DNA of 64,000 nucleotides from Lachnospiraceae bacterium 62-26 (GTDB taxonomy: Bacteria; Bacillota; Clostridia; Lachnospirales; Lachnospiraceae): assembly GCA_041223685.1 (NCBI GenBank), contig JBCLQR010000015.1; one strand, written 5' to 3'. Numbering within the stretch: the stretch's first letter is position 1; each line of letters starts with the position of its first letter. Positions 2,396-61,763 of this stretch are shown here, one piece after another. The notes below the pieces were generated by a model, which was given only the letters and a program-made list of their open reading frames with translations, was not told the origin of the DNA and did no database searches. A program made the translations under genes and the position numbers.

Positions 2396-2571
2396 TGATG
2401 GTATTGGCGGTGAGCAGTATTGTATCGACGTCGCTGACAGGGGGCGTGGTATTTGCCATTATGGTACTGGCGGTAAGGAGTATATGGAAAAAGAAGAAGT
2501 CAGGGGGAGGCTGTGGCTGCGGGTGCGCCGGATGCAGCGGCGCGTGCCCGTCTAAGAAACGTGATTCTTGA
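2395..2571 (+). CDS. FeoB-associated Cys-rich small membrane protein (58 aa, below ORF-track cutoff)
   Basis: ATG overlaps feoB stop (TAATG at 2393-2397); one predicted TM helix followed by GGGCGCGCAGCSGACPS Cys cluster; 59 codons ending TGA 2569-2571. Confidence 0.55.
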   Translation: MMVLAVSSIVSTSLTGGVVFAIMVLAVRSIWKKKKSGGGCGCGCAGCSGACPSKKRDS

Positions 2572-2586
2572 TTCCGTTGTAATAGT

Positions 2587-2615
2587 TTGACTTTTGAGGG
2601 GTGGAATAATATAAT
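2587..2615 (+). promoter_or_regulatory. Putative sigma-A promoter (TTGACT-17-TATAAT) for the aminopeptidase gene
   Basis: TTGACT at 2587-2592, 17-nt spacer, TATAAT at 2610-2615, about 40 nt upstream of the 2654 start. Confidence 0.4.
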
Positions 2616-2653
2616 GAAGTTATCAATATTATAGAGAAAGGCTGGGGAAGACA

Positions 2654-3739
2654 ATGGACCAGGGCAAAGTTGCAAGAGTGTTGAAATCAATGGAGGAACA
2701 CGAGATTCCGCAGATGATCATATCTGATCCGGTTGCTGTCTTTTATCTTACGGGAAAGCGGATCGAGCCGGGGGAGAGACTGCTGGCGTTATATCTGAAC
2801 GTCAACGGCGGTCATAAGCTGGTTATCAACAAGTTATTCCCGCAGGAGAAGGATCTGGGGGTTGAACTTGTATGGTATGATGACATTGAGGATGGTGTGG
2901 AGATTTTAAGCCGGCTTGTGGAGAAGGATAAGACCATGGGAGTTGACAAGACATGGCCGGCGAGATTTCTTCTTCGTCTGCAAGAGCTGGGCGGCGGAAG
3001 CAGGTTCGTGAATGGTTCTCCGATCGTTGATTACATCCGTATGGTGAAGGATGAGAAAGAGAAGGAGCTGATGAGAGAGGCCTCCAGGCTGAATGACATT
3101 GCTATGGAGAGACTGATTCCATGGGTTGTCAAAGGAATGACGGAGAAGGAATTGAACGCGAAGATCCGGGAGATTTACAAGGAACTTGGCTGTGAGGATG
3201 TATCCTTCGATCCGATCACGGCTTATGCAAAGGGCGCGGCAGATCCGCACCATGTAACGGATGATTCGAAGGGGAAGCGCGGTGACTGTGTGCTCCTTGA
3301 TATCGGTGCGTTCAAGGATAATTATGCTTCTGATATGACGAGGACGGTGTTTATCGGCGAGGTGTCCGACCGGGCAAAGGAGATCTACGATATCGTTGTT
3401 GAGGCGAACAGACGCGGTATCGAGGCGGCAAAGCCGGGTAACCGGATGTGCGACGTTGACCTTGCGGCCAGGAATTATATCGAAGAAAAAGGCTATGGGC
3501 AGTATTTTACGCACAGGACCGGACATTCCATTGGTTTGGAGGATCACGAGTTCGGGGATGTGTCCTCTGTCAATGAAGATATCATTCAGGCAGGACAGTG
3601 CTTCTCTGTTGAACCGGGGATCTATCTTGCGGACGAGGGCATCGGAGTGCGCATTGAGGATCTTGTGCTCATCACGGAAGACGGCTGTGAAGTGTTGAAT
3701 CACTTTACAAAAGATCTGATCATAGTACCAGAAGAATAG
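2654..3739 (+). CDS. M24 family metallopeptidase (Xaa-Pro aminopeptidase/dipeptidase-like)
   Basis: 361 aa; creatinase-N-like N-terminus plus pita-bread fold motifs DIGA..YASDMTRT, HRTGHSIGLEDHE, EPGIY, IRIED. Confidence 0.85.
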   Translation: MDQGKVARVLKSMEEHEIPQMIISDPVAVFYLTGKRIEPGERLLALYLNVNGGHKLVINKLFPQEKDLGVELVWYDDIEDGVEILSRLVEKDKTMGVDKTWPARFLLRLQELGGGSRFVNGSPIVDYIRMVKDEKEKELMREASRLNDIAMERLIPWVVKGMTEKELNAKIREIYKELGCEDVSFDPITAYAKGAADPHHVTDDSKGKRGDCVLLDIGAFKDNYASDMTRTVFIGEVSDRAKEIYDIVVEANRRGIEAAKPGNRMCDVDLAARNYIEEKGYGQYFTHRTGHSIGLEDHEFGDVSSVNEDIIQAGQCFSVEPGIYLADEGIGVRIEDLVLITEDGCEVLNHFTKDLIIVPEE

Positions 3740-3760
3740 AGACGGTTCTTTTATAAAGGG

Positions 3761-3798
3761 TTGCCGGGGAAGGTAATTATTTTCCGGCAATCTTTTTT
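3761..3798 (+). terminator. Rho-independent terminator after the M24 peptidase gene
   Basis: Stem TTGCCGG (3761-3767) / CCGGCAA (3784-3790) with 16-nt loop, followed by TCTTTTTTG. Confidence 0.6.
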
Positions 3799-4019
3799 GT
3801 TAAAATGTGTATGTGTCTTGTTGTCGAAAGATGTCGAAAATTTGTTCGTTTTTTTGAGGAAAAAGGATTGAAATCTATGGGGAAGGTCTGGTAAAATAAA
3901 GGTCAGAAAGATTGCAAGGGAAGTAATCATCTATTTTCATTTATTTCAGGATATATCTGTCGGATTCAGACAATGTTTTCCAGGTTATGCTATTTTAATT
4001 TAAGAACAGGAGTGAAGTT

Positions 4020-4274
4020 ATGAACCATATTAAGATGGAAAATGAATATGTAGGGGTAATGGTGAATTTATATGAGAAGTCAAATGAGGAGATTTGTGCA
4101 ATTGCAGAGAGCGGGCGTATAGACGACATTATGACAGGATATCTCGTATTGATCCTTCATAAGGTAGGGGTTGCGATGGATAAGGTAGATGAGATAGACT
4201 ACAACGCCATCTTCCGCAAGATTGATGTCAGAGAAGCGCAGATGCTTGGAAGACTGTATGGAAGAAAGAGATGA
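4020..4274 (+). CDS. Hypothetical small protein (84 aa)
   Basis: ORF with RBS AGGAGTGAAG 5 nt upstream of ATG; lies in an AT-rich 750-bp region; no recognisable motif. Confidence 0.4.
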   Translation: MNHIKMENEYVGVMVNLYEKSNEEICAIAESGRIDDIMTGYLVLILHKVGVAMDKVDEIDYNAIFRKIDVREAQMLGRLYGRKR

Positions 4275-4386
4275 GGCGGTTTCTCGTCTTACCTGTGTGA
4301 CAGGCGGTTTTTGGGTAAGTGTCTGTGAAGGTGTGTTAAGATAGTGAAAATATAGCAAAAAGACTGCGATTAAGAGAAGATACATC

Positions 4387-4415
4387 TTGACCTTTAGTTG
4401 TAAAGAGATTATAAT
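4387..4415 (+). promoter_or_regulatory. Putative sigma-A promoter (TTGACC-17-TATAAT) upstream of the HD-domain gene
   Basis: TTGACC 4387-4392, 17-nt spacer, TATAAT 4410-4415; about 80 nt upstream of the GTG start at 4493. Confidence 0.4.
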
Positions 4416-4492
4416 TTTGAACGTAAGACTTGAAGTTAAGGCGGATAAGAGGAGATAGAGGATAAGAGAAACTGACAAAGGAGGAAGCAAAA

Positions 4493-5056
4493 GTGACCAG
4501 AGAGCAGGCACACGATATCTTGATGAAGTATATGAAGGGTGAGAATTATATTACTCATTCATATGCAGTAGAGGCAATTATGAAGGGACTGGCCAAGCGC
4601 CTTGCCCCGGATGAGGTAGAATACTGGGGCATTGTCGGACTTCTCCATGATCTGGATGAGGAACAGTGTGACTGGAAGAACGACATGGGAGTGCATGGCC
4701 CGTCGTCTGTGGAGATCCTTAAAAAGGAAGGGATTGATGATAAAGTATTATTTGACGCGATCTGTGCGCATAACCCGAAGTGTGGTGTGAAAGCGAAGAC
4801 CAAGCTGCAATATGCGATTCTGTCGGCAGATCCGATGAGCGGATTTGTGAAGGCGGTTGCACAGATTTATCCAGATAAGAAGATTGCGAGTGTGAAGCAC
4901 AAGTCTGTAATGAAGCGTTTTAATGAACTGCGATTTGCGGCAGGAGCCAACAGGGATTATATGGAAGCGATTGAGTTTACAGGGCTGAGCCTGGACGACC
5001 TGATCGATGTTGCGTTGGAGGAGATGGGAGCCATCGCGGATGTGCTGGGGTTGTAA
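4493..5056 (+). CDS. HD/HDIG domain phosphohydrolase
   Basis: 187 aa; His..HD metal-binding signature (ITHSYAVEA .. GLLHDLDE); GTG start preceded by AAGGAGGAAGC. Confidence 0.75.
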   Translation: MTREQAHDILMKYMKGENYITHSYAVEAIMKGLAKRLAPDEVEYWGIVGLLHDLDEEQCDWKNDMGVHGPSSVEILKKEGIDDKVLFDAICAHNPKCGVKAKTKLQYAILSADPMSGFVKAVAQIYPDKKIASVKHKSVMKRFNELRFAAGANRDYMEAIEFTGLSLDDLIDVALEEMGAIADVLGL

Positions 5057-5201
5057 TTTATTGATAACGACAGCAGATATATCAGGGGCATATGCCGGAT
5101 ATCACATAGTATCTCTTATATAATAGGAAGAAACAGGGATTAACTGGTTTTGCAAATAAAAATTGGAAGTGTTTATGCGTCCCGCTTTGACGCTAAAGCT
5201 G

Positions 5202-5230
5202 TTGACAAAATTATATTGAGAAGGTATTAT
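5202..5230 (+). promoter_or_regulatory. Putative sigma-A promoter (TTGACA-17-TATTAT) of the cps-like operon
   Basis: TTGACA 5202-5207, 17-nt spacer, TATTAT 5225-5230, 46 nt upstream of the cpsB-like start. Confidence 0.45.
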
Positions 5231-5276
5231 TAAATACAGCTATATAACAGGCTGTATATAAGAAGGGTGTGAAGTT

Positions 5277-6014
5277 ATGGAAGGCTTTATAGACATGCAT
5301 TGTCATATATTGCCGGGAGTAGATGACGGCGCGAAAGATATCAAAGAGACGAAAGAGATGTTAAGGATCGCATATGAGGAAGGGATACGCTGTATTATTG
5401 CTACTCCACATCATCATCCAAAGCGTGGAAAAGAGAGCCCGAAGATATTGCGGCGGCAGGCTAAGCTGGTGCGGGAGGCCGCCCATGAGATAGACGAGCA
5501 TTTCCGTATCTATCTGGGGACAGAGATTTTCTTTGGACAGGATGTGCCGGACAAGCTGGAAGCCGGTGAGATATTATCCATGAATAACAGGGATTATGTG
5601 CTTGTGGAATTCTCGCCCTCTGATACTTATGCTTATATACGGCAGAGTCTCCAGCAGATGCAGATGGCCGGCTATGAGGTGATCCTCGCCCATGTAGAGA
5701 GATACAACTGTATTATCAAGGAGATTGAACTGGCAGAACAGTTGTGGGAGATGGGGATTCGTCTTCAGGTGAATGCGGACAGTATCACCGGCGAGAACGG
5801 CAGAGAGCTTAAGAAGTTTGTAAAGTGTCTGATGGACCAGGATCTTGTGTTCTGTGTTGGTACGGACGCACACAGCTGCCGGCACCGTGCACCCAGAATG
5901 AAGAAAGCGGCAGCCCAGGTAAAGAAGAAATTTGGCGATGAATATATGAGGAGGATATTCTTTGGCAATGCGAAGACGATGCTGAAGAAGTTACAGAAGA
6001 ATGAGTTACGATAA
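5277..6014 (+). CDS. cpsB: Capsular polysaccharide biosynthesis protein CpsB/YwqE-type PHP-family protein-tyrosine phosphatase
   Basis: 245 aa; N-terminal DMHCHILPGVDDG and ATPHHH PHP-phosphatase motifs; operon position immediately before Wzz and BY-kinase genes. Confidence 0.85.
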   Translation: MEGFIDMHCHILPGVDDGAKDIKETKEMLRIAYEEGIRCIIATPHHHPKRGKESPKILRRQAKLVREAAHEIDEHFRIYLGTEIFFGQDVPDKLEAGEILSMNNRDYVLVEFSPSDTYAYIRQSLQQMQMAGYEVILAHVERYNCIIKEIELAEQLWEMGIRLQVNADSITGENGRELKKFVKCLMDQDLVFCVGTDAHSCRHRAPRMKKAAAQVKKKFGDEYMRRIFFGNAKTMLKKLQKNELR

Positions 6015-51632: not shown

Positions 51633-52859
51633 ATGAAAATAATATCACAATACAAGGGGCTTCGCAGGGAGAATTATATCCTCTGCTTCGGACGTCTCGT
51701 TACGGCTATGGGCTCCATGATCTGGCCGATGCTGACGATGATCTTAAGCCAGAAGATGGGCATGAGCGCAGAGCATATTGCCTGGATCATGGCTGTGGTA
51801 GGCATCCTGGCCCTGCCGGCTAATCTGATCGGCGGCAAGATGGCGGATCATTTCAATAAGAAAATGAATATTGTATACCTGGATATGATATCTGTAGTCT
51901 GCTATGTGATCTGTGCATTGACGCCTCTGACAGAAAAGTCCATTGTGGTGATGTTTATTGCGGCCACCTGTCAGAGCATGGAGCATCCGTCTTATAATGC
52001 GCTCACAGCGGATATCACGGTAACGGAAGACCGGGAGCGTGCGTATTCACTCCAGTACCTCTGCTCGAATCTGGGATTTGTCATGTCACCGACGATCGCG
52101 GGATTTCTGCTCAGGGATTATCTCTGGCTGGCGTTTTTGATCAGCGGGAGCGCCATCGGGTGCTCTGCTGTGCTGATTCTGTTTCTGGTGAAGGATATCA
52201 CCCCGGTCAGAGACACCAGCCAGAAGGCTGTATATCAGGCCGAACGAAAAGGCGAGGGGCTGTGGACCGTCTTGAAGGAGAACAAGATGATCGTTCTCTA
52301 CCTTCTGGCAGTCAGCGGTTACTTTGCGACCTATCAGATGTATAATTATCTGATGCCTCTGGACCTTGCGAGACTGCATGGAGACAGCGGTGCGGTCATC
52401 TTCGGCTCTATCACCAGCGTGAACTGTGTGGTAGTCGTGTTGTGCACACCGCTGTTTACCAGAATGTTCCCGCAGGTGACAGAGACTGTCAAGACGCTGC
52501 TCGGCCAGGTCCTTTTGGTGGCGGGCTTCGGTATATTCCTGCTGTGCCTGGGGCGGATACCGTTCTACTATGTTGCGATGATCGTCCTGACCTGGGGAGA
52601 GGTGTTCAGTACGCTCGCGGAGAGCCCGTACCTTACGAAGCGGATGCCTGCAAGCCACAGAGGACGTATCAACGGGCTGGCAGAAGTGTTAAGGACCGGT
52701 ATAACCAGTGTATACCAGCTGTTGATAGGTTTCGTGTATAAGGCCGGAGGATCAGAGACGGCCTGGGTGGCTGTTCTGATCCTTGGAGTGTTCTTTGTGA
52801 TACTCTGTGTGGTACTGACGGTAAAAGACCGGAAGGTCTATAAGAATCTATACCTTTAA
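51633..52859 (+). CDS. MFS transporter
   Basis: 408 aa, 12 TM; follows the malic enzyme and aspartase genes on the same strand. Confidence 0.8.
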   Translation: MKIISQYKGLRRENYILCFGRLVTAMGSMIWPMLTMILSQKMGMSAEHIAWIMAVVGILALPANLIGGKMADHFNKKMNIVYLDMISVVCYVICALTPLTEKSIVVMFIAATCQSMEHPSYNALTADITVTEDRERAYSLQYLCSNLGFVMSPTIAGFLLRDYLWLAFLISGSAIGCSAVLILFLVKDITPVRDTSQKAVYQAERKGEGLWTVLKENKMIVLYLLAVSGYFATYQMYNYLMPLDLARLHGDSGAVIFGSITSVNCVVVVLCTPLFTRMFPQVTETVKTLLGQVLLVAGFGIFLLCLGRIPFYYVAMIVLTWGEVFSTLAESPYLTKRMPASHRGRINGLAEVLRTGITSVYQLLIGFVYKAGGSETAWVAVLILGVFFVILCVVLTVKDRKVYKNLYL

Positions 52860-53378
52860 AGCGAGCCGTCTGATGTCGGGGACTGCCAGCAGGATTGGAT
52901 ATAGTACAAAAGCGATAATAAGTCCACTGAGTCCCTGAATCAGATTGGCGGGAATACTTGCCGCGGCGGCGGAGATTCCATAGAGCGGGATCTCACAGAG
53001 GAAATATCCCCCGGCAACGAAGATGATGTCAACAATCCCGCCCAGTATCACGGCTGTACACTGACCTTTGCCGGTACGGCCGATCTTATGATAGATAAGT
53101 CCCGCAACACATGCGGTGATTCCTTTGATCGCGAATGTGATCGGTATATAGATAAAATATCCGCCGACAAGATCAGCCATGGCGGAACCGATTCCTGCGG
53201 CCAGAAATCCGCCGGACGGACCTAAGATAATACCGGAGAGGATGACAACAGCGTCGCCCGGATGTATGTATCCGCCCGTTCCCGGCGTCGGGATGCGGAT
53301 GGACATGGTTGCAACACAGGCCAGAGCCGCAAACAATGCAGTCGTGACGATTTTTCGCAGATTAGTATTTACGTTCAT
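52848..53378 (-). CDS. ECF transporter S component (substrate-specific membrane subunit)
   Basis: Start moved to ATG 53378 (MNVNTNLRKIVTTALFAALACV.., RBS AAGAGG); 176 aa with 5-6 TM and Gly-rich motifs typical of ECF S proteins; the upstream part of the track ORF has no RBS or homology. Confidence 0.65.
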   Translation of the reverse strand: MNVNTNLRKIVTTALFAALACVATMSIRIPTPGTGGYIHPGDAVVILSGIILGPSGGFLAAGIGSAMADLVGGYFIYIPITFAIKGITACVAGLIYHKIGRTGKGQCTAVILGGIVDIIFVAGGYFLCEIPLYGISAAAASIPANLIQGLSGLIIAFVLYPILLAVPDIRRLALKV

Positions 53379-53540
53379 AGTAGTGACCTCTTTTCCTTTT
53401 AATCTGTGGTAAACCTGTATGGATACAGGTTCAATCCGATAGAGATACTTTATACCCAGACTGGCGTGAAGGGAAGGTCCAATAAATACAAAATTAACCA
53501 TACCAGTTATTTTTTGAATATGTTTGTGAGGAAATAGAAA

Positions 53541-53825
53541 ATGGCAGATAACATCTATAAATTCAACGCAGTTATTCACACGATTCCGGAGAAAGGCGGA
53601 GCATATATTGAATTCCCCTATGATATCCGCGAGGAATTTGGGAAGGGGAGGGTGAAGGTCCATGTGACATTTGACGGGATTCCCTACGACGGGAGCATCG
53701 TGAACATGGGCGTAAAAAATCCTGACGGAAGTATCTGCTATATTATCGGAATGTTGAAAGCGATTCGTGAACGGCTGGGCAAGTCAAACGGTGATTCGGT
53801 TGAAGTAACTGTATGTGAGAGATGA
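53541..53825 (+). CDS. DUF1905 domain protein
   Basis: 94 aa; small beta-rich protein (..YIEFPYDIREEFGKGRVKVHVTFDGIPYDGSIVNMG..) matching the DUF1905 pattern; RBS GAGGAAA. Confidence 0.6.
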   Translation: MADNIYKFNAVIHTIPEKGGAYIEFPYDIREEFGKGRVKVHVTFDGIPYDGSIVNMGVKNPDGSICYIIGMLKAIRERLGKSNGDSVEVTVCER

Positions 53826-53832
53826 TCCCCTT

Positions 53833-54888
53833 TCATTTCAGATTCCGTTGTCTCCAAAGGCGCGACCGCAGGCTTTTCAGGAATTTCTCATTTCCGATCA
53901 CTGTGATCATAGGACCAAAGGACATCACTTCGATCAACAGCTCGGTTTCCATGCTCTGATTATAATAGATAAGGCATTCATAGGTGTTCTCATCTATCTT
54001 GGTCGTATTCTTTTCATAATTGGCAAAATGTAACATAGCCCGTTCCAGTGCGTTGCGCTTATTGGCGATATGCAGCCGGAGCGGTTCTTTGTAGTAGGAT
54101 CTTCGGATCAGCGAATTCAGATCAATGTCAGAAGAGAGCCGTTTTTCTGTGAGCCGGGCACTCTGTATGCGGGCGATATTCAGGATGTCAAGCCTCATGC
54201 CGCCACGGCCGGTATTCTTCAGCGCGAGGAGGCGGAACTTGTCGTTTTTGACGGAGTATTCAAGCCTGGCAGGAACATAGTGATGGTGTACGCGCGTTCC
54301 GGCAGGGGAAGTATAATCAAGATCCACATACCGTTTAAGCTTCTGCGCCTTCAAGAGAGTTCGGAAGTTTTGACGGTATGTTTCACTTCTGCCGTAAAGC
54401 CTGTCCTCTTTTTCATCTGCGCCGGCTTCGTCTGACAACGCCGCGGCGCCTGATGATACCGCGTCACTGCCTGACGGCGGTATCGGATAGGGATCTTTGT
54501 CTGCAAACTGGTCATAATAGCAGAACTGTTCCTTACGCCAGAGCGGTTTTACAGACGCAAGCATTTCGTTCAGGGCATCGAATTGCTCCCGGTCAAGAAA
54601 CAGTCCGATGCGGGGATCTGACAGCAAAGCCTTGAGATAAGATTTTTCAAGGGAAGTGAGCGGGACGGCAAAGGAGGGGGAAAGCCTGGACAGATAGAGT
54701 TCGTTGTCCCTGTCAAACAGATTCCATGCCCCGCTCTCCAGTCTTGGGATGATGGAGATCATGCTTTCGCCGAAGCCTTCGTTGTCGATCTGGCGGTAGA
54801 TCTCCTGTATGGTCATGGCATCTGTCCGGCACAGAATATGCCGTAATACCTGGTAATAACAGCTGTATATTTCTGAAAATAATTCCAT
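53833..54888 (-). CDS. WYL domain transcriptional regulator (wHTH-WYL-WCX architecture), downstream member of a tandem pair
   Basis: 351 aa; WYL-domain signature region (..YVPARLEYSVKNDKFRLLALKNTGRGGMRLDILNIARI..), C-terminal WCX-like end (FGPMITVIGNEKFLKSL); RBS AAAAGGAG. Confidence 0.7.
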   Translation of the reverse strand: MELFSEIYSCYYQVLRHILCRTDAMTIQEIYRQIDNEGFGESMISIIPRLESGAWNLFDRDNELYLSRLSPSFAVPLTSLEKSYLKALLSDPRIGLFLDREQFDALNEMLASVKPLWRKEQFCYYDQFADKDPYPIPPSGSDAVSSGAAALSDEAGADEKEDRLYGRSETYRQNFRTLLKAQKLKRYVDLDYTSPAGTRVHHHYVPARLEYSVKNDKFRLLALKNTGRGGMRLDILNIARIQSARLTEKRLSSDIDLNSLIRRSYYKEPLRLHIANKRNALERAMLHFANYEKNTTKIDENTYECLIYYNQSMETELLIEVMSFGPMITVIGNEKFLKSLRSRLWRQRNLK

Positions 54889-54916
54889 GTGAGAACTCCT
54901 TTTTCATTCGCGGCTG

Positions 54917-55025
54917 GTGTAAGGGGACCGATTCGTAAAGGTATTGACTCGTAAAGGAATCGATTCGTAAAGAAATCGACTCGTAAGGGGATTGATTCGT
55001 AAAGAAATCGACTCGTAAGGGGATC
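54917..55025. repeat. Tandem array of 6.5 copies of a 16-bp unit (GAYTCGTAARGRRATY), filling the spacer between the two WYL genes
   Basis: Full units at 54930, 54946, 54962, 54978, 54994, 55010; units alternate GATTCGTAAAGAAATC / GACTCGTAAGGGGATT, giving a 32-bp period; last unit overlaps the stop codon (55024-55026) of the upstream WYL gene. Confidence 0.85.
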
Positions 55026-56289
55026 AGGCGTCTTCGTTTGGCGTATGGGAAGCCGGGGGGATCTCATACATCTCGTACATTTTCTGCAAGTCACGGTAAA
55101 ACCGTTGTTCTACGGATCTGGCGGTACACTTAAGATCAAGGATCCTTCCGATAAATGTGCGGATCCACGGCAGCATTTCATTACAATCAAAGACTTCGAT
55201 CTCGTACTGATAGATATTCCGTGCGATCTTTGTTACGGTTCCGCCCCTGCCTTCCCGTTTCAGCCTGTCAACAATATAATCCTCAGCAGGTTCGAGAGCC
55301 TGTATGGTCATGGTAAGTCTGTCCAGATGATGCGCTCCTTCGCCCTGAAAGGAAACGCCCCACAGCTTCTTGCGGTTCTGATCCAGTGTGTCTGTGAGCC
55401 TGTCATATTCCGGGAAGGGTTCCAGAGGGGTAACACATTTGATGGAATCCAGTCGGAAGCAGGAGAAGCGTTTTCTTCTGTGCACATATCCGCACAGGTA
55501 ACGCCGGCCGCTCCTTGTGCTGATAAATATCTGCAACGGGACGCAGACGGTGGTGGTTACTTTCTCCGAGCGGGAGCTTTTCAGGCTGAGTTCCACACGC
55601 ATTTTCTGGTTCATGGCACAGAGAAGCTTAAGAAGAATCTCATCCTCCAGTGTATGTACGCAGAAGCTGTGTTTTACCCGGAAAGTCTGGTTCTGACAAT
55701 CCATCTGATCGGTTAGTTCATTCCCGATGATTCCAAATACTTCCGCTGTCTGGTAGAAGAAGAGTGCATCCAGTATATCTTCGTTGGAACGGATCCACCG
55801 GATCGGCGCAAGGTTCAGGGAGTAGACGACCGTCTTTCCTTTCTTCTGCTTGTCTAAAAGCCCCTCTCTGGCATAGGCGTTGCATTTGCGCCGGACGGTC
55901 TGTATGTCGAACAGTGCTTCGTATTCCGTGAGAAGGAGGTCTGTGACGGCTTCTGCTGTCAGGGCGCGCCCGTCTTGCAGGATATCTAAGATCAGAAAAT
56001 GCAGGACAATATCGTTGTCGGTAAAGCTCTTCGTCTTCCATACTCTGAACAGGGGATTGGCATCCAGAAGATTACTGTCGATGGCGAGGGAAATATTTGA
56101 GCCGCCGGATACATGATCTTTCCGGACATAGGGGGCAAGCCAGCTCTCCAGCCGTCTCCGCTCATTGTCGTAGGTGCGGGGGCTTTTGGCCTTGAATTCA
56201 TTCCTGGTCTTGAACCCGTAGACGAAAAAATCGCGGACGTATTCCCGTGTCTTGGGAAAGCTCTTTATTAATTCCTGAAAATCAGACAT
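55024..56289 (-). CDS. WYL domain transcriptional regulator (wHTH-WYL-WCX), upstream member of the tandem pair (PafB/PafC-like arrangement)
   Basis: 421 aa; classic WYL motif VPLQIFISTRSGRRYLCGYVHRRKRFSCFRLDSI; C-terminal WCX-like ..WIRTFIGRILDL; strong RBS GTAAGGAGGCA; divergent from rtcB. Confidence 0.75.
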   Translation of the reverse strand: MSDFQELIKSFPKTREYVRDFFVYGFKTRNEFKAKSPRTYDNERRRLESWLAPYVRKDHVSGGSNISLAIDSNLLDANPLFRVWKTKSFTDNDIVLHFLILDILQDGRALTAEAVTDLLLTEYEALFDIQTVRRKCNAYAREGLLDKQKKGKTVVYSLNLAPIRWIRSNEDILDALFFYQTAEVFGIIGNELTDQMDCQNQTFRVKHSFCVHTLEDEILLKLLCAMNQKMRVELSLKSSRSEKVTTTVCVPLQIFISTRSGRRYLCGYVHRRKRFSCFRLDSIKCVTPLEPFPEYDRLTDTLDQNRKKLWGVSFQGEGAHHLDRLTMTIQALEPAEDYIVDRLKREGRGGTVTKIARNIYQYEIEVFDCNEMLPWIRTFIGRILDLKCTARSVEQRFYRDLQKMYEMYEIPPASHTPNEDA

Positions 56290-56472
56290 TGGGTGATGCC
56301 TCCTTACTTCTGTGCCTGTGGGACGGATGTACTTTGTATGGAAGTAATCGTATCACAGACCAGAAGAAAATACCAGAGTTCGCAGCTTTTTTTAAATGAT
56401 TCTGCGGAAAATGCCGGGTATAATACTACCATCAGATGCAGATCAGAAATAAGATGAAAGGGTGTGGAGGAT

Positions 56473-57705
56473 ATGTTTGTAATATCAAATGAGAATACCA
56501 GATTTCCGATAAAAATATGGCTTGAAGATATCAGCCGGCTTGAAGGATCCTGTCTTGAACAGGCGTATCACCTGGCACAGCTTCCGTTTTTGCACAAATG
56601 GGTGTGCCTGATGCCGGACACCCATACGGGCAAAGGAATGCCGATCGGCGGGGTGATCGCGGCGAAGGATGTGATCATACCCAACGCGGCAGGCGTGGAC
56701 ATCGGTTGCGGGATGGATTACATACCGACGAATATTTTGGTGGAAGAGATAAGGAAGGTACAGACGGGAAACGGCACGATCCTCCAGGCAGTCATCGGAA
56801 ATATCATGCGGACGATCCCGCTTGCCACGGAACGTTACAGGGAACCGCAGAAGTCCAGGGTGCTTGACCGGGCGAAGCAGGAGCCGGAAAAGTATCAGGA
56901 GGATCAGGAGCTTCTGCCGTTGATCGAAGACGGGTATTTTCAGGTGGGAAGCCTGGGAGGAGGAAATCATTTCATAGAGCTTCAGGAGGATCAGGACGGC
57001 TGTCTGTGCATCATGATCCATTCGGGCAGCCGCCATCTTGGGAAGGAAATCTGTGATCATTTCCACAAGAAGGCCAGAGAACTGAACCGGAGATGGTACA
57101 GTGAAGTAAAAGACGAATATCAGCTGGCGTTCCTTCCGGTTCAGGCCAGGGAGGGGCAGCAGTATATCAATTGGATGAACCTGGCGCTTGATTATGCTTT
57201 CGAGAACAGAGAGAGGATGCTTGAGAAGACCTGTTCCATTGTGAAGGAGACCATAGAGAAGTATACGGATATGATCGTGGAATTCGGGGAAGAGATCAAC
57301 TGCCACCACAACTATGCGGCGTTGGAGAACCACTATGGAGAAAATGTCTGGGTACACAGGAAAGGCGCAGCCAGGGTGCGGGAAGGCGAGCTGGCTGTAA
57401 TCCCGGGGGCGATGGGTTCCTTCAGCTATGTGGTGGAAGGAACGGGGAATCCCTTATCTTTCTGCTCGTCTTCCCACGGCGCCGGAAGGAATTATTCGAG
57501 GACGGGAGCCATGAGAGAGTTCAGCGTGGAAAAGGTCATGACCGATCTGAAGGAACAGGGCGTCGTGCTTGGGAAACGCAGGAAAAATGATGTGGCAGAA
57601 GAGTGCCGGTTTGCCTATAAAGATATCGACCAGGTAATGGCACAGCAGATGGACCTGGTTACGCCGGTCAGAAGACTTCGGACGGTCGGCGTCGTGAAGG
57701 GATAG
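56473..57705 (+). CDS. rtcB: RtcB family RNA 3'-phosphate/2',3'-cyclic-phosphate ligase
   Basis: Start ATG 56473 (MFVISNE.., RBS GTGGAGGAT); metal-binding and catalytic motifs MPDTHTGKGMPIGGV, GGGNHFIELQ, IHSGSRHLG, CHHNYAALENH; the track start 56464 is a GTG. Confidence 0.9.
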   Translation: MFVISNENTRFPIKIWLEDISRLEGSCLEQAYHLAQLPFLHKWVCLMPDTHTGKGMPIGGVIAAKDVIIPNAAGVDIGCGMDYIPTNILVEEIRKVQTGNGTILQAVIGNIMRTIPLATERYREPQKSRVLDRAKQEPEKYQEDQELLPLIEDGYFQVGSLGGGNHFIELQEDQDGCLCIMIHSGSRHLGKEICDHFHKKARELNRRWYSEVKDEYQLAFLPVQAREGQQYINWMNLALDYAFENRERMLEKTCSIVKETIEKYTDMIVEFGEEINCHHNYAALENHYGENVWVHRKGAARVREGELAVIPGAMGSFSYVVEGTGNPLSFCSSSHGAGRNYSRTGAMREFSVEKVMTDLKEQGVVLGKRRKNDVAEECRFAYKDIDQVMAQQMDLVTPVRRLRTVGVVKG

Positions 57706-57820
57706 GGAAATAATTTATTGTGTCAGGGTATTGGGAGGACTTCATATAACCCGTGCTCCCTGCCCGGCGGTGCCTGCGGCGTGCTGTCAGGTATACCATA
57801 AATATTTCAAATATAAAAAG

Positions 57821-57875
57821 TGTGGTGTCGGGGGTTCGAATCCCTCCCGTGTAAACGGCAGCTCAGAGGTAGAGC
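57821..57875 (+). other. tRNA-like fragments: T-arm (GGGGG-TTCGAAT-CCCTC) with 3' acceptor-like strand, then a D-arm-like GCTCAGAGGTAGAGC; no complete tRNA
   Basis: T-stem/loop at 57830-57846 followed by CCGTGTA-A; D-arm-like element at 57861-57875; the upstream 50 nt are AT-rich with no acceptor or D-arm partner. Confidence 0.35.
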
Positions 57876-58317
57876 ACACATGAGAAAGGGAAGACTTGTC
57901 AAAGGTCTGCGGTTTAACGCCGCTCTAATTAAAAATACTTCTGTCCCTTCTGTGTCATTGCATGTTATATGCGGATGCAATGATGCAGGGGTTCATGCAC
58001 AGGATGCAGATTGACTTGCCGCCTGTAAGCCCGATTTGCAATACGCAGACTGGAAGGATCATGGAAGTGATCATAGACAGGGATCAGGAAGATAAGCCGG
58101 AAAGAAAGAACAGCGGCCGGCAAAAGGTATTTTCAGAATGTACGGCAAAAGGCGGCGGCCTGTGAATGCCGTGCAGGAGAAGTGGATACCAGCTGACGGA
58201 CCGTCCTTCTTTCAGACCGGCCGCCTCCCCGGGCTTCCGCGGCAGGCCGATGAACAAGGGATGGGAGTATTCTGAAAAGAACAAAATTATTCTACATTCA
58301 GACAGGAGGAATGTGTT

Positions 58318-59430
58318 ATGAAGTATATGCTCAGGGATAATCAGGCGGGATTTGTGTTAAAGGACGGAGTATTCAAGAAAATGATAACGTCCGGAATCTG
58401 CCGTTTCTCCAAAATGCGGGGGTACAGTGTTGAGATAGAAGAGATGTCGGGCGAGGTCGACTACATGGAAGTGCCTTATCAGATCCTTGCCAAAGATCCG
58501 GCGTTTCTTGCATCGGTCCTGCATGTGGAGATTCCTGACGGTTCTGTGGGATTTATTTACATAAATGGAAAACTGACGTCATTTGCCAATCGGAAAGAGT
58601 ATACATTCTGGAATGTATTTGACAAGTATGAGGTAAAGACCGTATCCATGGCGGAGACAGAGATCGGGGCGGAGGTGTCAAAGCAGATGCTTGCACTGGT
58701 CCCAAAGAACCTTTATACGGAGATATCCGTAGGAGAAGGGCAGACTGGCCTGGTATATTATGACAATGTACTCCAAAGGCAGCTGGCGAAGGGGGTGTAT
58801 CGCTTCTGGAACTATGCCCGAAGTGTGACGTACCATATATTTGATATGAGGCAGCAGGAACTGGACATCGTGGGGCAGGAGATACTGACCAAAGACAAGA
58901 TCGGTATCCGGATGAATGTTTCCTGCATGTATAAGGTCCGGGACGCCGTAGAATTTGCCGCGACGGTGACGGAGCTTAAGAGGCCCCTTTACTCGGCGGT
59001 ACAGCTTGTGATCCGGGAAATTGTGGGAAATTATAAGCTGGATGAGATATTAGAGTTAAAAGAGAAGATTTCCGGGGAAATCTATACGGCTCTCAGGGTG
59101 CGGGAGAAGATGTTCTGCGTTAATTTCCTGACTGCCGGGATCAAGGATATCATACTGCCGGGCGAGATCCGGGAGATTATGAATTCCGTCCTGGTGGCTG
59201 AGAAGTCGGCGCAGGCAAATGTAATCTCAAGGCGGGAGGAGGTGGCTTCTACCCGGTCGCTTCTCAATACGGCGAAACTGATGGATGAGAACAAGACGCT
59301 CTTTAAGCTCAAGGAGCTCGAGTATCTGGAGCGGATCTGTGAGAAGGTGGGAGAGATATCTGTGAATGGAAATATGGGGATTGTAGAACAACTGGGGAAG
59401 ATGATCGGGACAGGGCAGAGGGCTTCTTAA
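58318..59430 (+). CDS. SPFH/Band-7 domain protein (slipin/flotillin-like) with no N-terminal TM
   Basis: 370 aa; SPFH core (..QEILTKDKIGIRMNVSCMYKVRD.. and ..REIMNSVLVAEKSAQANVISRREEVAST..) preceded by a 130-aa soluble N-terminal extension. Confidence 0.7.
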   Translation: MKYMLRDNQAGFVLKDGVFKKMITSGICRFSKMRGYSVEIEEMSGEVDYMEVPYQILAKDPAFLASVLHVEIPDGSVGFIYINGKLTSFANRKEYTFWNVFDKYEVKTVSMAETEIGAEVSKQMLALVPKNLYTEISVGEGQTGLVYYDNVLQRQLAKGVYRFWNYARSVTYHIFDMRQQELDIVGQEILTKDKIGIRMNVSCMYKVRDAVEFAATVTELKRPLYSAVQLVIREIVGNYKLDEILELKEKISGEIYTALRVREKMFCVNFLTAGIKDIILPGEIREIMNSVLVAEKSAQANVISRREEVASTRSLLNTAKLMDENKTLFKLKELEYLERICEKVGEISVNGNMGIVEQLGKMIGTGQRAS

Positions 59431-60434: not shown

Positions 60435-60575
60435 ATAGTTCTATATTGTGCAGATAACTGGCGGAAACCGGCTTTTCCTGCGTCTTTGGCATACAGGAAT
60501 TGTGAGGGATTGGAAGCCTGGGAGGTGAATGTTATACAAGGAGAGGGAAAGAAGGGCGAAGAACCAGGGGAGAGG

Positions 60576-60899
60576 CTGGAAAATGGTGAGAATCAGGCGA
60601 TTGGGAAGGATCAGAAAAATGGTGAGAATTTGGCAATTGGTGAGAGCTTGAAAAATGGTGAGAATTTGGCAATCGGGGAGAGCCTGAAAAGTGGTGGAAA
60701 GCAGGCAATCGAGAAGAATCAGGAGGCCGGGAAGAATCAGAAAATGGAGGAAAGTCTGAAAAATGGGGAGAATTTGGCAGCCGGGAAGAATGTGAAAAAT
60801 GGTGAGAGTCTGAAAAACGGAAAGAATCAGAAAGCCGGGAAGAATCAGAAAATGGAGGAAAGCCTGAAAAATGGTGAATATCAGGCGGCCGGGAAGAAG
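60576..60899. repeat. 18-bp tandem repeat, about 18 units (CWGAAAAATGGTGAGAAT-like), in-frame hexapeptide repeat or upstream noncoding minisatellite
   Basis: Units readable every 18 nt from 60576 to 60899; translate in the polyferredoxin frame as (K/E)NGEN(L/Q)A(I/A)G(E/K)S repeats. Confidence 0.8.
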
Positions 60900-60941
60900 A
60901 CGGCGGCACGAAAGTCGGGATTATACGGGAGATGTACGGGG

Positions 60942-61763
60942 GTGTATGAAGGGAAACGTCATGGCGTTCAGGCTTTGTGGGCATTGCTTACTAATAGCTA
61001 TCTGGCGGGATTTGTGCAGGGGAAAATATACAGAGGAAGTCTTAAGAATCTGTGCGTGCCGGGCTTAAACTGTTATTCTTGCCCGGGAGCTGTCGGCTCC
61101 TGCCCGATCGGCGCTATGCAGGCAGTCATCGGGAGCTGGAACTTTAAGCTTGCATTTTATGTGGCAGGCTTCCTGATGTTTGTTGGGGCGCTGATGGGAA
61201 GATTTGTCTGTGGATGGCTGTGTCCATTCGGGCTGATCCAGGATCTGCTGTACAAGGTTCCGTTTTTTAAGAAAATCGAGAGCTTTCGGGGGGATAAGTC
61301 TGCGCGGAAGCTGAAATATGTGATACTTGTTGTATTTGTGATCCTTCTGCCGATGTTCCTGGTGGATATCCTGGGACAGGGGGCGCCGTATTTCTGTAAG
61401 CTGATCTGTCCGGCCGGGACGCTGGAGGGAGGAATTCCCCTTGTCCTGCTCAACAAGTCCATGCGAAGCGCGGTGGGATGGCTGTATGCATGGAAAAATG
61501 TGCTGCTGGCGGTTACCGTCATTTTCTCGGTTCTGATCTACCGGCCGTTCTGCAAATATATCTGTCCGTTGGGAGCGGTCTATTCTGTATTCAATCCCGT
61601 CTCGGTGTTCCGATACCGGATAGATGATGATAAATGTACCGGCTGCGGGATCTGCGCAAAGGTCTGTAAGATGCAGGTGAACCCGGTGAAGAATGCAAAT
61701 CATCCGGAGTGTATCCGATGCGGAGTTTGTAAAGCGTCATGTCCTGTAAAGGCGATACGGTAA
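60942..61763 (+). CDS. Polytopic 4Fe-4S-binding membrane protein (NapH/MauN-like polyferredoxin)
   Basis: Conserved core starts ..HGVQALWALLTNSYLAGF.. with CxxC pairs in TM helices and C-terminal 2x CxxCxxCxxxCP; proposed GTG start 60942 (RBS GGGAGA); the track ORF extends to a TTG at 60486 through the repeat region and an in-frame ATG lies at 60744, so the start is uncertain. Confidence 0.6.
   Translation: MYEGKRHGVQALWALLTNSYLAGFVQGKIYRGSLKNLCVPGLNCYSCPGAVGSCPIGAMQAVIGSWNFKLAFYVAGFLMFVGALMGRFVCGWLCPFGLIQDLLYKVPFFKKIESFRGDKSARKLKYVILVVFVILLPMFLVDILGQGAPYFCKLICPAGTLEGGIPLVLLNKSMRSAVGWLYAWKNVLLAVTVIFSVLIYRPFCKYICPLGAVYSVFNPVSVFRYRIDDDKCTGCGICAKVCKMQVNPVKNANHPECIRCGVCKASCPVKAIR

Follow-up and report, generated by a model that had tools for sequence, protein, structure and literature searches.

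Several described systems resemble the locus reported here. One is PafBC, the mycobacterial and actinobacterial DNA-damage activator, which is built from two paralogous wHTH-WYL-WCX modules, encoded by tandem genes or, in some lineages, by a single fused one. Its dimer forms through the WCX-WCX contact, and fusions occur in nature (PMC6789036); a single ssDNA runs across both WYL domains and switches transcription on (PMC11804915). DriD of Caulobacter, CapW and BrxR share this architecture, which defines the 'class A' transcription factors of Mueller et al. 2019 (PMC6789036), and each controls, locally, a stress or defence operon next to its own gene, but they are single-gene homodimers with palindromic sites and an ssDNA ligand, and what they control is DNA-damage genes, CBASS or BREX rather than RNA repair. 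In the realm of RNA repair, the rtcBA operon of E. coli and Salmonella lies divergent from RtcR, a dedicated ligand-sensing regulator (a CARF-AAA+ sigma-54 activator) whose signal is damaged tRNA (PMC7790460), and the Salmonella rtcB operon carries Y-RNA-like tRNA mimics (10.1101/312249). Finally, Burroughs and Aravind (2016; NAR 44:8525), as judged from papers that cite this work, predicted a repair module in which rtcB stands beside a Band-7/SPFH gene and a tRNA-like ncRNA.

The window analysed here is a stretch of 64,000 nt from contig JBCLQR010000015.1 (assembly GCA_041223685.1, Lachnospiraceae bacterium 62-26, a gut bacterium), and all positions refer to it. It contains two adjacent minus-strand genes, A (55024..56289, 421 aa) and B (53833..54888, 351 aa), and, on the plus strand and divergent from A, an rtcB RNA ligase gene (56473..57705, 410 aa counted from its ATG), the product of which matches Pfam RtcB over its full length (1.3e-108) and solved RtcB structures in the PDB at about 1e-42. 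The earliest possible rtcB start codon is GTG 56464; in tblastn alignments, however, homologues match from the first residue of the ATG form onwards, making ATG 56473 the common start, and the control region between A and rtcB (56290..56472) is thus 183 bp long. The open reading frames, their strands and this spacer are as the sequence-only reading had given them, and the peptide strings it quoted are found in the two proteins. Between genes A and B lie 135 nt (54889..55023), in which the minus strand shows nothing resembling a terminator; the two genes of related loci overlap or stand up to about 100 nt apart, and in some lineages they are fused. A and B are probably co-transcribed. Around the pair, Pfam identifies rtcB, an SPFH/Band-7 protein (58318..59430, plus strand, 370 aa; Band_7 5.6e-24), an ECF-S component and DUF1905, and no Pup-proteasome linkage is seen at the locus. 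Nor does an RtcR-type regulator, rtcA or rsr adjoin rtcB here: the regulators are WYL proteins, the promoter carries a sigma-70-type TATAAT, and SPFH/Band-7 takes the place of Ro60. The earlier suggestion that this rtcB is RtcR-independent is in keeping with this arrangement.

Both regulators belong to the wHTH-WYL-WCX class as judged by profile and fold searches, which agree with the HTH, WYL and WCX regions proposed from sequence. The AF2 model of B (pLDDT 72.7) places a wHTH at residues 10-67 (three predicted helices and a beta-hairpin), a WYL domain at about 186-250 and a WCX domain at about 257-348, with a disordered Ala/Ser/Asp-rich insert at about 123-156. The B protein of the window has no match in Pfam or NCBIfam but matches the PADLOC WYL model (5.7e-7), and among 64 members of its family Pfam WCX PF25583 is found in 35 and WYL in 16; the family profile also matches the PafBC WCX of 6sj9. 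For A, the AF2 model predicts a wHTH of the same composition at 95-160, a linker helix and a WYL domain at 214-291, followed at 295-407 by a C-terminal domain of alpha/beta type. Its WYL domain is recognised by Pfam PF13280 (31.5 bits, cutoff 21.8, residues 217-287) and by the PADLOC model (1e-11); PF13280 is matched by 32/45 family members, a few of which also match the wHTH models PaaX, HTH_12 or Penicillinase_R. Its C-terminal domain does not match Pfam WCX, yet it aligns with the WCX of B by hhalign and with that of solved regulators by fold, so that it may be called WCX-like, if with weaker support than in B. The wHTH was expected to be N-terminal in both proteins; this is true of B, whereas in A it is preceded by a strongly conserved extension of 94 residues with invariant positions (aa 1-94, coded by 56008..56289), which PafBC does not have. 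With Foldseek, the A model matches full-length DriD, PafBC, CapW and BrxR at 3e-10 to 1e-5 and the B model the same group at 5e-10 to 1e-4, with 8tp8 (3e-10 and 5e-10), 7tb5, 9c5g, 7qfz and 7t8k among the top or high matches, and 9fnd X/Y and 6sj9 on the PafBC side.

How far the likeness to PafBC extends is a matter of degree. BLASTP detects no similarity between A and B, while hhalign aligns them over the WYL and C-terminal/WCX region (E 1.8e-5, 18% identity), which points to very distant paralogues. The sequence-only reading had called this the paired PafB/PafC arrangement. The tandem order and the existence of fusions bear this out, but the close homology between the two halves of PafBC is absent, A and B having diverged from each other much further than PafB from PafC, and A and B are not PafB and PafC orthologues: although the PDB entry that scores best by sequence profile is PafB in the case of A (3.5e-4) and PafBC in that of B (2.9e-3), PafC reaches only 0.42, and the PafB and PafC matches cover single domains. 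The setting differs too, since the host is a member of the Lachnospiraceae rather than of the Actinobacteria and the apparent target is an RNA-repair operon. At the residue level, B has a degenerate WYL signature, with Arg in place of the Tyr of W-Y-L and Asn at the position of PafB R211, and A has S282 at that of R214, one of the two key PafB arginines thus being missing; ligand binding may therefore sit in one module or differ in kind.

A pointer to a joint function is the presence of at least eight diverged natural fusion proteins, each a single reading frame that encodes both A and B in full length; they recur on independent contigs where their contexts were looked up. These support a PafBC-style two-module unit, and it is quite probable, by analogy with PafBC, that A and B form a heterodimer, most likely through their WCX domains. 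The alternative, that A and B are independent homodimers that are neighbours by chance and of which one or neither controls rtcB, draws on the fact that most characterised WYL regulators (DriD, BrxR, CapW) are homodimers and on the lack of BLASTP-detectable similarity between the two. We consider it improbable given the fusions, an A-B adjacency that is invariant across 27-83% identity, and a DNA site that, as described below, has no dyad symmetry as a whole, which is what one would expect if the binder is asymmetric.

Linkage of the pair to RNA repair is not confined to this genome. The same pair, sometimes fused, accompanies RNA-repair genes together with a 23-bp DNA site in about 100 other genomes, all relatives coming from Clostridia, Enterococcus or Treponema. 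Among 80 close loci, all from Lachnospiraceae and with A at least 62% identical, rtcB is present and divergent from A in 77, and B lies downstream of A in 77. The conserved WYL-WYL-rtcB order that the sequence-only reading anticipated is therefore found in related species, and it extends to most distant relatives: in 15 loci with A 31-45% identical, B always adjoins A, and in 12 of them RNA-repair genes adjoin the pair in differing layouts, including rearranged co-directional ones. The repair genes themselves differ, comprising RtcB of two clades (26-28% versus 58-72% identity), a DUF2828/vWA protein, or, in Enterococcus, a Hen1/Pnkp-like cassette of Hen1-like, Pnkp-like and NTase genes; near the other three distant pairs (L081, L090, L095) no RNA-repair gene could be recognised within 6 kb. 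One could argue that all this is gene order inherited without function, with the conserved intergenic block amounting to two core promoters only, and some synteny is indeed expected by descent among 80 Lachnospiraceae loci this similar. This explanation is very unlikely, because the remaining window neighbours are not conserved across the close loci, while the linkage persists in the distant ones through other families and genera, other orientations and non-homologous repair enzymes. Furthermore, the 23-bp motif lies away from the A promoter in co-directional loci and extends 20 bp further upstream than any -35 position.

Downstream of rtcB, the predicted 'tRNA-like fragments' turned out to be tRNA-like indeed, but as one structured RNA of about 160 nt (57786..57943, plus strand) identified with nhmmer, RNAalifold and Rfam. 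Its core (57822..57880) has a T arm, an acceptor-like hairpin and a D arm in the permuted order of YrlA (Rfam RF02553), and is followed on the 3' side by an arm resembling an anticodon arm and by another T arm, both additional to YrlA; ARAGORN calls no tRNA in it. The Rfam match (35.3 bits, E 7e-6, model positions 23-86/114) stays below the gathering score of 69 and leaves the Ro60-binding stem part of the model unmatched, and no rsr gene is nearby, so we describe the RNA as YrlA-like rather than as YrlA proper. It is detected by nhmmer downstream of rtcB in 57 loci, and an RNAalifold consensus of 38 sequences contains 27 pairs, eight of them with compensatory changes; in distant loci, sub-threshold YrlA matches of 38-42 bits lie between rtcB and Band_7. 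The SPFH/Band-7 gene follows rtcB in 54/80 close loci and in distant loci L084, L086, L089, L091 and L096. With a Band-7 gene next to rtcB and a tRNA-like ncRNA in the cassette, the operon is an instance of the RtcB-Band-7-tRNA-like system already predicted by Burroughs and Aravind, insofar as that work is represented by its citing papers; YrlA has been reported as occasionally being the RNA next to Band-7 (10.1101/312249).

The control region offers a candidate for how the pair acts on this operon. Across 58 aligned intergenic regions there is a single conserved block of about 75 bp, the rest being unalignable, and within it lies the 23-bp site with family consensus GTTCGCAACTTTTTTGAAATGAT, represented in the window by GTTCGCAGCTTTTTTTAAATGAT (56378..56400, plus strand), a predicted operator or activator site at about -54 to -31 of the rtcB promoter. 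The motif matches once in the window but never in 100 shuffles, and 86/90 sequences carry exactly one copy where chance would give none. A perfect -10 hexamer (TATAAT, 56419..56424, plus strand; conserved in more than 80% of loci) follows 18 nt beyond its end, a distance kept in 77/86. The site also follows the target operon rather than gene A: in the co-directional loci L087, L088 and L096 it stands in front of the operon and not at the A promoter, it remains beside rtcB in 17-18 of 19 loci with unrelated genes between rtcB and A, and variants with the same N18 spacing occur upstream of the Hen1/Pnkp-like operon of Enterococcus (L094) and at L092. Control of rtcB through this site is, in our judgement, probable. 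As in PafBC, the site is asymmetric and near the -35 region, but its sequence differs from that of RecA-NDp promoters, at which PafBC, triggered by ssDNA, activates by sigma adaptation.

Such control could be positive or negative. The -35 position of the rtcB promoter is poor (AATGAT/ATGATT), and generic promoter calling that requires both hexamers passes the promoter over. The non-consensus AATGAT, which is conserved, and the absence of a TG extension at the -10 are typical of activator-dependent promoters, and together with the position of the site, whose centre near -42 matches class-II activators, they lead us to lean slightly towards activation, an inclination shared by the closest fold matches, DriD and PafBC, both activators. 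On the other hand, the same pair and site could work as a repressor in the manner of BrxR and CapW, with the -35 region of the rtcB promoter occluded until ligand release. The perfect TATAAT means that the promoter might fire unaided, Foldseek also matches CapW and BrxR, and the WYL transcription factors of conflict systems have been described as negative regulators (Iyer et al. 2022, PMC9503650). A promoter for A, predicted by sequence reading and consensus reasoning only (56367..56395, minus strand; -35 TTAAAA at 56395..56390, a 17-nt spacer ending in TGG, -10 TATTTT at 56372..56367; TTCAAA-N17(TG)-TATAyT at this position in other loci), has its -35 position and spacer covered by the site. 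This overlap makes autoregulation of A plausible, and a site that lies over the -35 fits a repressor equally well. We regard repression as the less likely course, though one to be kept in view.

As for the signal, a nucleic-acid ligand on the WYL/WCX modules would switch the unit, and we tentatively favour, at somewhat short of even odds, an RNA-damage product such as RNA or tRNA fragments with 2',3'-cyclic-phosphate or 5'-OH ends. The known ligands of WYL transcription factors are all ssDNA or c-di-GMP, not RNA (PMC11804915, PMC11880434), and all structurally defined WYL-factor ligands among our fold matches are ssDNA (8tp8, 9fnd, 9c5g; PMC11804915). The pair might thus sense ssDNA like PafBC, DriD and CapW, which would place the rtcB operon in a DNA-damage or phage-infection response; in Salmonella, expression of the rtc operon occurs during the SOS response (PMC9879122). 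We hold this to be rather doubtful, since the A-B family stands beside RNA-repair cassettes of three different mechanisms rather than beside DNA-repair genes, the WYL and WCX folds are of RNA-binding type (PMC6789036), and WYL has been proposed to sense RNA ends (PMC9503650).

Taken together, our preferred explanation, to which we assign a probability of roughly 0.65, is that A and B are a ligand-switched controller of an RNA-repair operon. Made from one transcript, the two proteins would act as a single two-module unit that binds the asymmetric 23-bp site on a sigma-A-type promoter with a perfect -10 and a poor -35, and would through it control rtcB, the YrlA-like tRNA-mimic RNA and SPFH/Band-7, with autoregulation through the overlap with the A promoter; ligand-dependent activation, class-II-like or sigma-adaptation-like, would be favoured over derepression. 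The proposal of the sequence-only reading, a WYL-heterodimer-controlled RNA-damage response module, is supported to this extent, the heterodimer, the ligand and the regulation itself being inferences. Since PMC9503650 cites the 2016 work of Burroughs and Aravind for WYL factors, a WYL link was probably noted there; the literature consulted, in which that work is represented by its citing papers, yielded no account of the regulator family, whether paired or fused, or of the DNA site that goes with it. If our explanation is true, the A-B family would regulate RNA-repair cassettes generally across Clostridia and Enterococcus, and thereby be a functional counterpart of RtcR, and the locus suggests a hitherto uncharacterised switch for RNA repair in Gram-positive bacteria.

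The adjacent minus-strand genes A (55024..56289, 421 aa) and B (53833..54888, 351 aa) encode wHTH-WYL-WCX regulators, a class common among Actinobacteria and Firmicutes (PMC6789036). The product of A matches the Pfam WYL model above its curated cutoff at aa 217-287 and the PADLOC WYL model at 1e-11; the window's own B protein matches the PADLOC WYL model at 5.7e-7 and nothing in Pfam or NCBIfam. At the family level, WYL was matched by 32/45 members of the A family, and Pfam WCX and WYL by 35 and 16, respectively, of 64 diverse members of the B family. AF2 models, built from input alignments of 35 sequences, comprise a wHTH (95-160), a long linker helix, a WYL domain (214-291) and an alpha/beta C-terminal domain (295-407) for A (pLDDT 62.7), and a wHTH (10-67), WYL (186-250) and WCX (257-348) for B (pLDDT 72.7). 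Searched against the PDB with Foldseek, A and B returned one list of matches, namely DriD, PafBC (9fnd X, Y; 6sj9), CapW, BrxR and the Cas13d-associated WYL1, at E-values from 3e-10 to 1e-4 and with no other significant match. Profile and fold searches together bear out the WYL domain and the wHTH-WYL-WCX fold that the sequence-only reading had assigned to both proteins. Single-sequence PDB searches were set aside, their matches being marginal or spurious (the designed Kelch-like repeat proteins returned for B are repeat noise). What falls outside the known architecture is the first 94 residues of A (56008..56289, minus strand), the most conserved stretch of its family, with many invariant Arg, Tyr and Phe residues; this extension has no Pfam match, is modelled at pLDDT <50 and is absent from DriD, PafB/C, BrxR and CapW. 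An Ala/Ser/Asp/Glu-rich insert lies between the N-terminal domain and WYL of B (aa ~123-156; 54420..54522, minus strand); it is predicted to be disordered and is missing from most homologues (about 320 aa).

The relationship between A and B is visible only with family profiles: direct BLASTP found no similarity between the two proteins, whereas their profiles align over WYL and WCX (hhalign probability 78%, E 1.8e-5, 169 columns, 18% identity), which marks them, on the strength of this alignment, as old paralogues. A profile search over 1.84 billion representatives recovered 1388 relatives of B, eight of which are A-B fusions (685-855 aa), with a full-length A at 33-45% identity as the N-terminal half and B as the C-terminal half. 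Two of the fusion genes with examined contexts (P0391 and P0396) each turn up on separate contigs of different origin, and the A and B halves share one frame in L084 (806 aa). Natural gene fusions are a classic sign of two proteins working together. These fusions mirror the separate PafB and PafC and the fused PafBC of Arthrobacter, so that the likeness to a tandem or fused two-module PafBC stands; the identification as PafBC itself does not, since tests for orthology to PafB/PafC and for proteasome linkage found neither. PafBC dimerises through its WCX domains (PMC6789036). By analogy, A and B would form a heterodimer through their WCX domains, a reading to which we give a probability of roughly three in four.

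Divergently from A runs rtcB (plus strand, to 57705), whose start is GTG 56464 or ATG 56473. Because the ATG is the start common to homologues in related loci (tblastn), the spacer between A and rtcB is 183 bp, as first proposed. The initial assignment of the gene as rtcB is unambiguous, as its product matches Pfam RtcB over its full length (1.3e-108) and, at about 1e-42, RtcB ligases of solved structure. Judged by its homologues, the window belongs to Lachnospiraceae, its best matches being uncultured mouse-gut 'Dorea' MAGs and Sporofaciens musculi. When one genome per GTDB species was scanned, 313 genomes had an A relative. Among the best 80 loci (the close set, all Lachnospiraceae, A 62-83% identical), tblastn with the window proteins placed B downstream of A in 77, rtcB divergently upstream of A in 77, and the SPFH/Band-7 gene (58318..59430 in the window) beyond rtcB in 54; the WYL-WYL-rtcB order read from one sequence is thus conserved. 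B also lies downstream of A in 15/15 distant loci. The DUF1905 and ECF-transporter S-component genes on the B side of the window, together with MFS and the other window neighbours, were essentially never found by tblastn in the 80 close loci. The mechanical ORF of the ECF S component (52848..53663, minus strand) overlaps the DUF1905 gene (53541..53825, plus strand), and its real start is probably well downstream because the ECF domain begins only at aa 100. Another neighbouring ORF (60486..61763, plus strand) opens with about 150 aa of imperfect K/N/G/E-rich repeats (GENLAIGESLKNGEN...), followed by a cysteine-rich polyferredoxin-like membrane region.

In the distant set (15 distinct loci; A 31-45% and B 27-41% identical), the regulators occur with divergent RtcB and Band-7 (five loci), as a fusion with divergent RtcB alone (one), as a pair leading co-directionally into RtcB (one), with a DUF2828/vWA protein and RtcB, divergent or co-directional (three), as a pair followed by SPFH, RtcB and a nucleotidyltransferase (one), and as a fusion facing a DUF2828/vWA gene (one). 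The DUF2828 protein, which we take to be Ro60-like, has no match in the PDB by sequence and gives only a weak vWA match. On an Enterococcus raffinosus megaplasmid (L094; NZ_CP081847, 669503-682684), the pair faces a Hen1-like methyltransferase (TIGR04074, 6e-21), a Pnkp-like 850-aa protein (TIGR04075, 5e-54; both scores are below the equivalog cutoffs) and a nucleotidyltransferase, and a Y-family DNA polymerase gene lies just past this operon. As the RtcB of the co-directional and DUF2828 loci is only 26-28% identical to that of the window, the regulator family goes with two RtcB clades and, at the Hen1/Pnkp-like locus, with a non-homologous ligase system. Judged from these gene neighbourhoods, such an association is what would be expected of a functional link to RNA repair rather than of inherited gene order. 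A mobile element or defence island was considered as another explanation and rejected: there was no phage match, the window flanks are housekeeping genes, and the plasmid matches are 0.25-1.2 Mb non-mobilizable replicons. No recognisable repair gene was found near three distant pairs (L081, L090 and the Treponema locus L095, which has only a NUDIX gene). In the first of these (Logan SRR32503428 contig, 4151-5947), a fusion regulator and a 4-mismatch copy of the conserved promoter motif face only small unannotated ORFs (30, 83, 221 and 64 aa), and the target may be of an unknown kind. Subdoligranulum variabile has two A-B pairs in one organism, upstream of different cassettes: SPFH-RtcB-nucleotidyltransferase (L096, OY725857) and tRNA-like RNA-RtcB-DUF2828 (L097, OY725878).

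Between rtcB and the SPFH gene lies a structured RNA of about 160 nt (57786..57943, plus strand), a YrlA-like permuted tRNA module, after which come an anticodon-like arm and another T arm (GCGGTTTAACGCCGC). Against the tRNA-like portion of Rfam YrlA, its core scores 35 bits, short of the gathering score (69); scanning the window with Rfam at gathering thresholds and with ARAGORN found no RNA, and the YrlA-like match appears only at E-value thresholds. The RNA is present in 57/80 close loci by nhmmer, which was used for the final count (an earlier strict regex for the tRNA-like module had matched 6/80). The consensus that RNAalifold predicts from 38 sequences has T-arm, acceptor-like, D-arm and anticodon-like helices plus that of the second T arm, with compensatory changes in 8/27 pairs. 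The single-sequence fold z-score is unremarkable (-1.19), so the case for the RNA is one of conservation and covariation. The tRNA-like fragments first reported downstream of rtcB form a single structured, YrlA-like RNA. The window copy is without a further CTTAAC...GTTAAG hairpin present in most relatives. Distant loci have comparable sub-threshold YrlA matches between rtcB and Band-7, and tRNA-like genes lie within the DUF2828/RtcB operons of L087 and L097. In L087, ARAGORN calls Pro-tgg and Phe-gaa tRNAs (2484-2557 and 2682-2753; the Rfam tRNA model confirms only the second) between the motif and a DUF2828/vWA-HEAT-repeat-RtcB operon; they may be operon-embedded tRNA-like cofactors. The order rtcB-RNA-SPFH matches the RtcB-Band-7-tRNA-like RNA system that Burroughs and Aravind reportedly predicted in 2016, rather than the RtcR-rtcBA operon. 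Wang et al. (bioRxiv 10.1101/312249) describe YrlA as an occasional form of the RNA beside Band-7, and this RNA as one that had yet to be validated by experiment.

When 58 rtcB-A spacers were aligned, a single block was conserved (GTTCGCAACTTTTTTGAAATGAT in the rtcB sense) and the remainder was unalignable. The window copy of this 23-bp element (56378..56400) departs from it at two positions and is the one match there, none occurring in 100 shuffles; allowing up to 4 mismatches, the element occurs exactly once in 86/90 sequences, and in 77 of these 86 a TATAAT-like hexamer follows 18 nt past its end. With that hexamer at 56419..56424 in the window, the element covers about -54 to -31 of a sigma-70-type promoter, whose -35 position reads AATGAT, with no TG extension. 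The element tracks the target operon, not the regulator. In co-directional loci (L087, L088, L096) it comes after B and before the repair operon, its orientation relative to the operon unchanged, and where a Uma2 gene is inserted (L089) it still adjoins rtcB. In 19 close loci, rtcB and A are separated by 0.45-6.3 kb of genes (NIF3, esterase, ArgRS, fucosidase, GGDEF and others), and the element lies 50-150 bp from rtcB in 17-18 of them; the intervening genes were rejected as extra module members, their functions being unrelated. One locus (L039; CAJUPF010000036, about 2488-4370) has lost rtcB, and there the element precedes the ncRNA and SPFH, which are still beside the A-B pair. Upstream of the DUF2828 operons of L082 and L093 and of the rtcB of an 829-aa fusion locus (L092) lie weaker variants that keep the N18 spacing, as does the motif-like GCTCGCACCCTTTTTTAAAAGAA-N18-TAAGAT before the Hen1/Pnkp-like operon of Enterococcus. 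The element as a whole lacks dyad symmetry, which is limited to GTT-CGC-AAC; this would fit an asymmetric two-module binder. On the opposite strand, the conserved block reads TTCAAA-N17(TG)-TATAyT, likely the promoter of A, predicted in the window by consensus reasoning at TTAAAA (56395..56390) and TATTTT (56372..56367) on the minus strand; as this promoter overlaps the element, occupancy of the site should regulate A and B as well. A generic promoter scan of the window called neither the rtcB nor the A promoter, both assigned from consensus, because their -35 elements are poor.

We propose that the A-B heterodimer would bind the 23-bp site, and that a nucleic-acid ligand in its WYL/WCX modules would switch transcription of rtcB, the RNA and SPFH. 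Two features, a -35 that is poor yet conserved and a site centre near -42, make us lean slightly towards activation; PafBC substitutes for the -35 contact, and DriD acts as an activator at a comparable position. That the pair instead works as a repressor like CapW or BrxR, both among its fold matches, seems to us less likely. Compared with M. smegmatis PafB, A keeps the WYL tyrosine (Y264) and the R211 equivalent (R279), with Ser where PafB has R214; in B, by hhalign, an invariant Arg occupies the tyrosine position and Asn that of R211. The two modules are thus unequal, and PafBC offers a parallel: of its two WYL domains, ssDNA binding requires only that of PafB (PMC11804915). More speculatively, the A-B family could be the first WYL transcription factor to sense damaged RNA (2',3'-cyclic-phosphate or 5'-OH tRNA/rRNA fragments), or the state of its own operon's tRNA-mimic RNA, through an asymmetric two-module WYL/WCX tunnel and the A-specific N-terminal domain, and might thereby serve Gram-positive gut bacteria as a general master switch, independent of RtcR, for their RtcB, Ro-like and Pnkp/Hen1 RNA-repair cassettes.

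The general idea of WYL control of RNA repair is already published: CARF and WYL transcription factors may sense RNAs with cyclic-phosphate ends, and some regulate RNA-repair pathways (Iyer et al. 2022, PMC9503650, which cites Burroughs and Aravind 2016 for the WYL factors). That 2016 paper may already mention the pair; the literature we searched on WYL with RNA repair contained no description of a paired or fused A-B family, of A's N-terminal extension or of the DNA site, no link of A-B to the three kinds of RNA-repair cassette and no experiment on the family. We see in the finding no new category but a well-delimited system open to direct tests.

Its interest lies in two questions, WYL sensing outside DNA damage and the Gram-positive control of RNA repair. 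WYL domains were reportedly predicted in 2014 to sense RNA-derived ligands, and the WYL ligands defined so far are, to our knowledge, all ssDNA or c-di-GMP. Likewise, we know of no account of how bacteria outside Proteobacteria switch on RNA repair, RtcR being the sole characterised regulator known to us. The locus makes both questions directly testable: a compact regulator pair, or a single-chain natural fusion, should suit biochemistry, the 23-bp site is precisely delimited with a fixed promoter geometry and a defined output operon, and cultured hosts include Sporofaciens musculi, Petralouisia muris, Enterococcus raffinosus and Subdoligranulum variabile. It would also give a handle on the predicted RtcB-Band-7-tRNA-mimic system, which is abundant in gut Lachnospiraceae.
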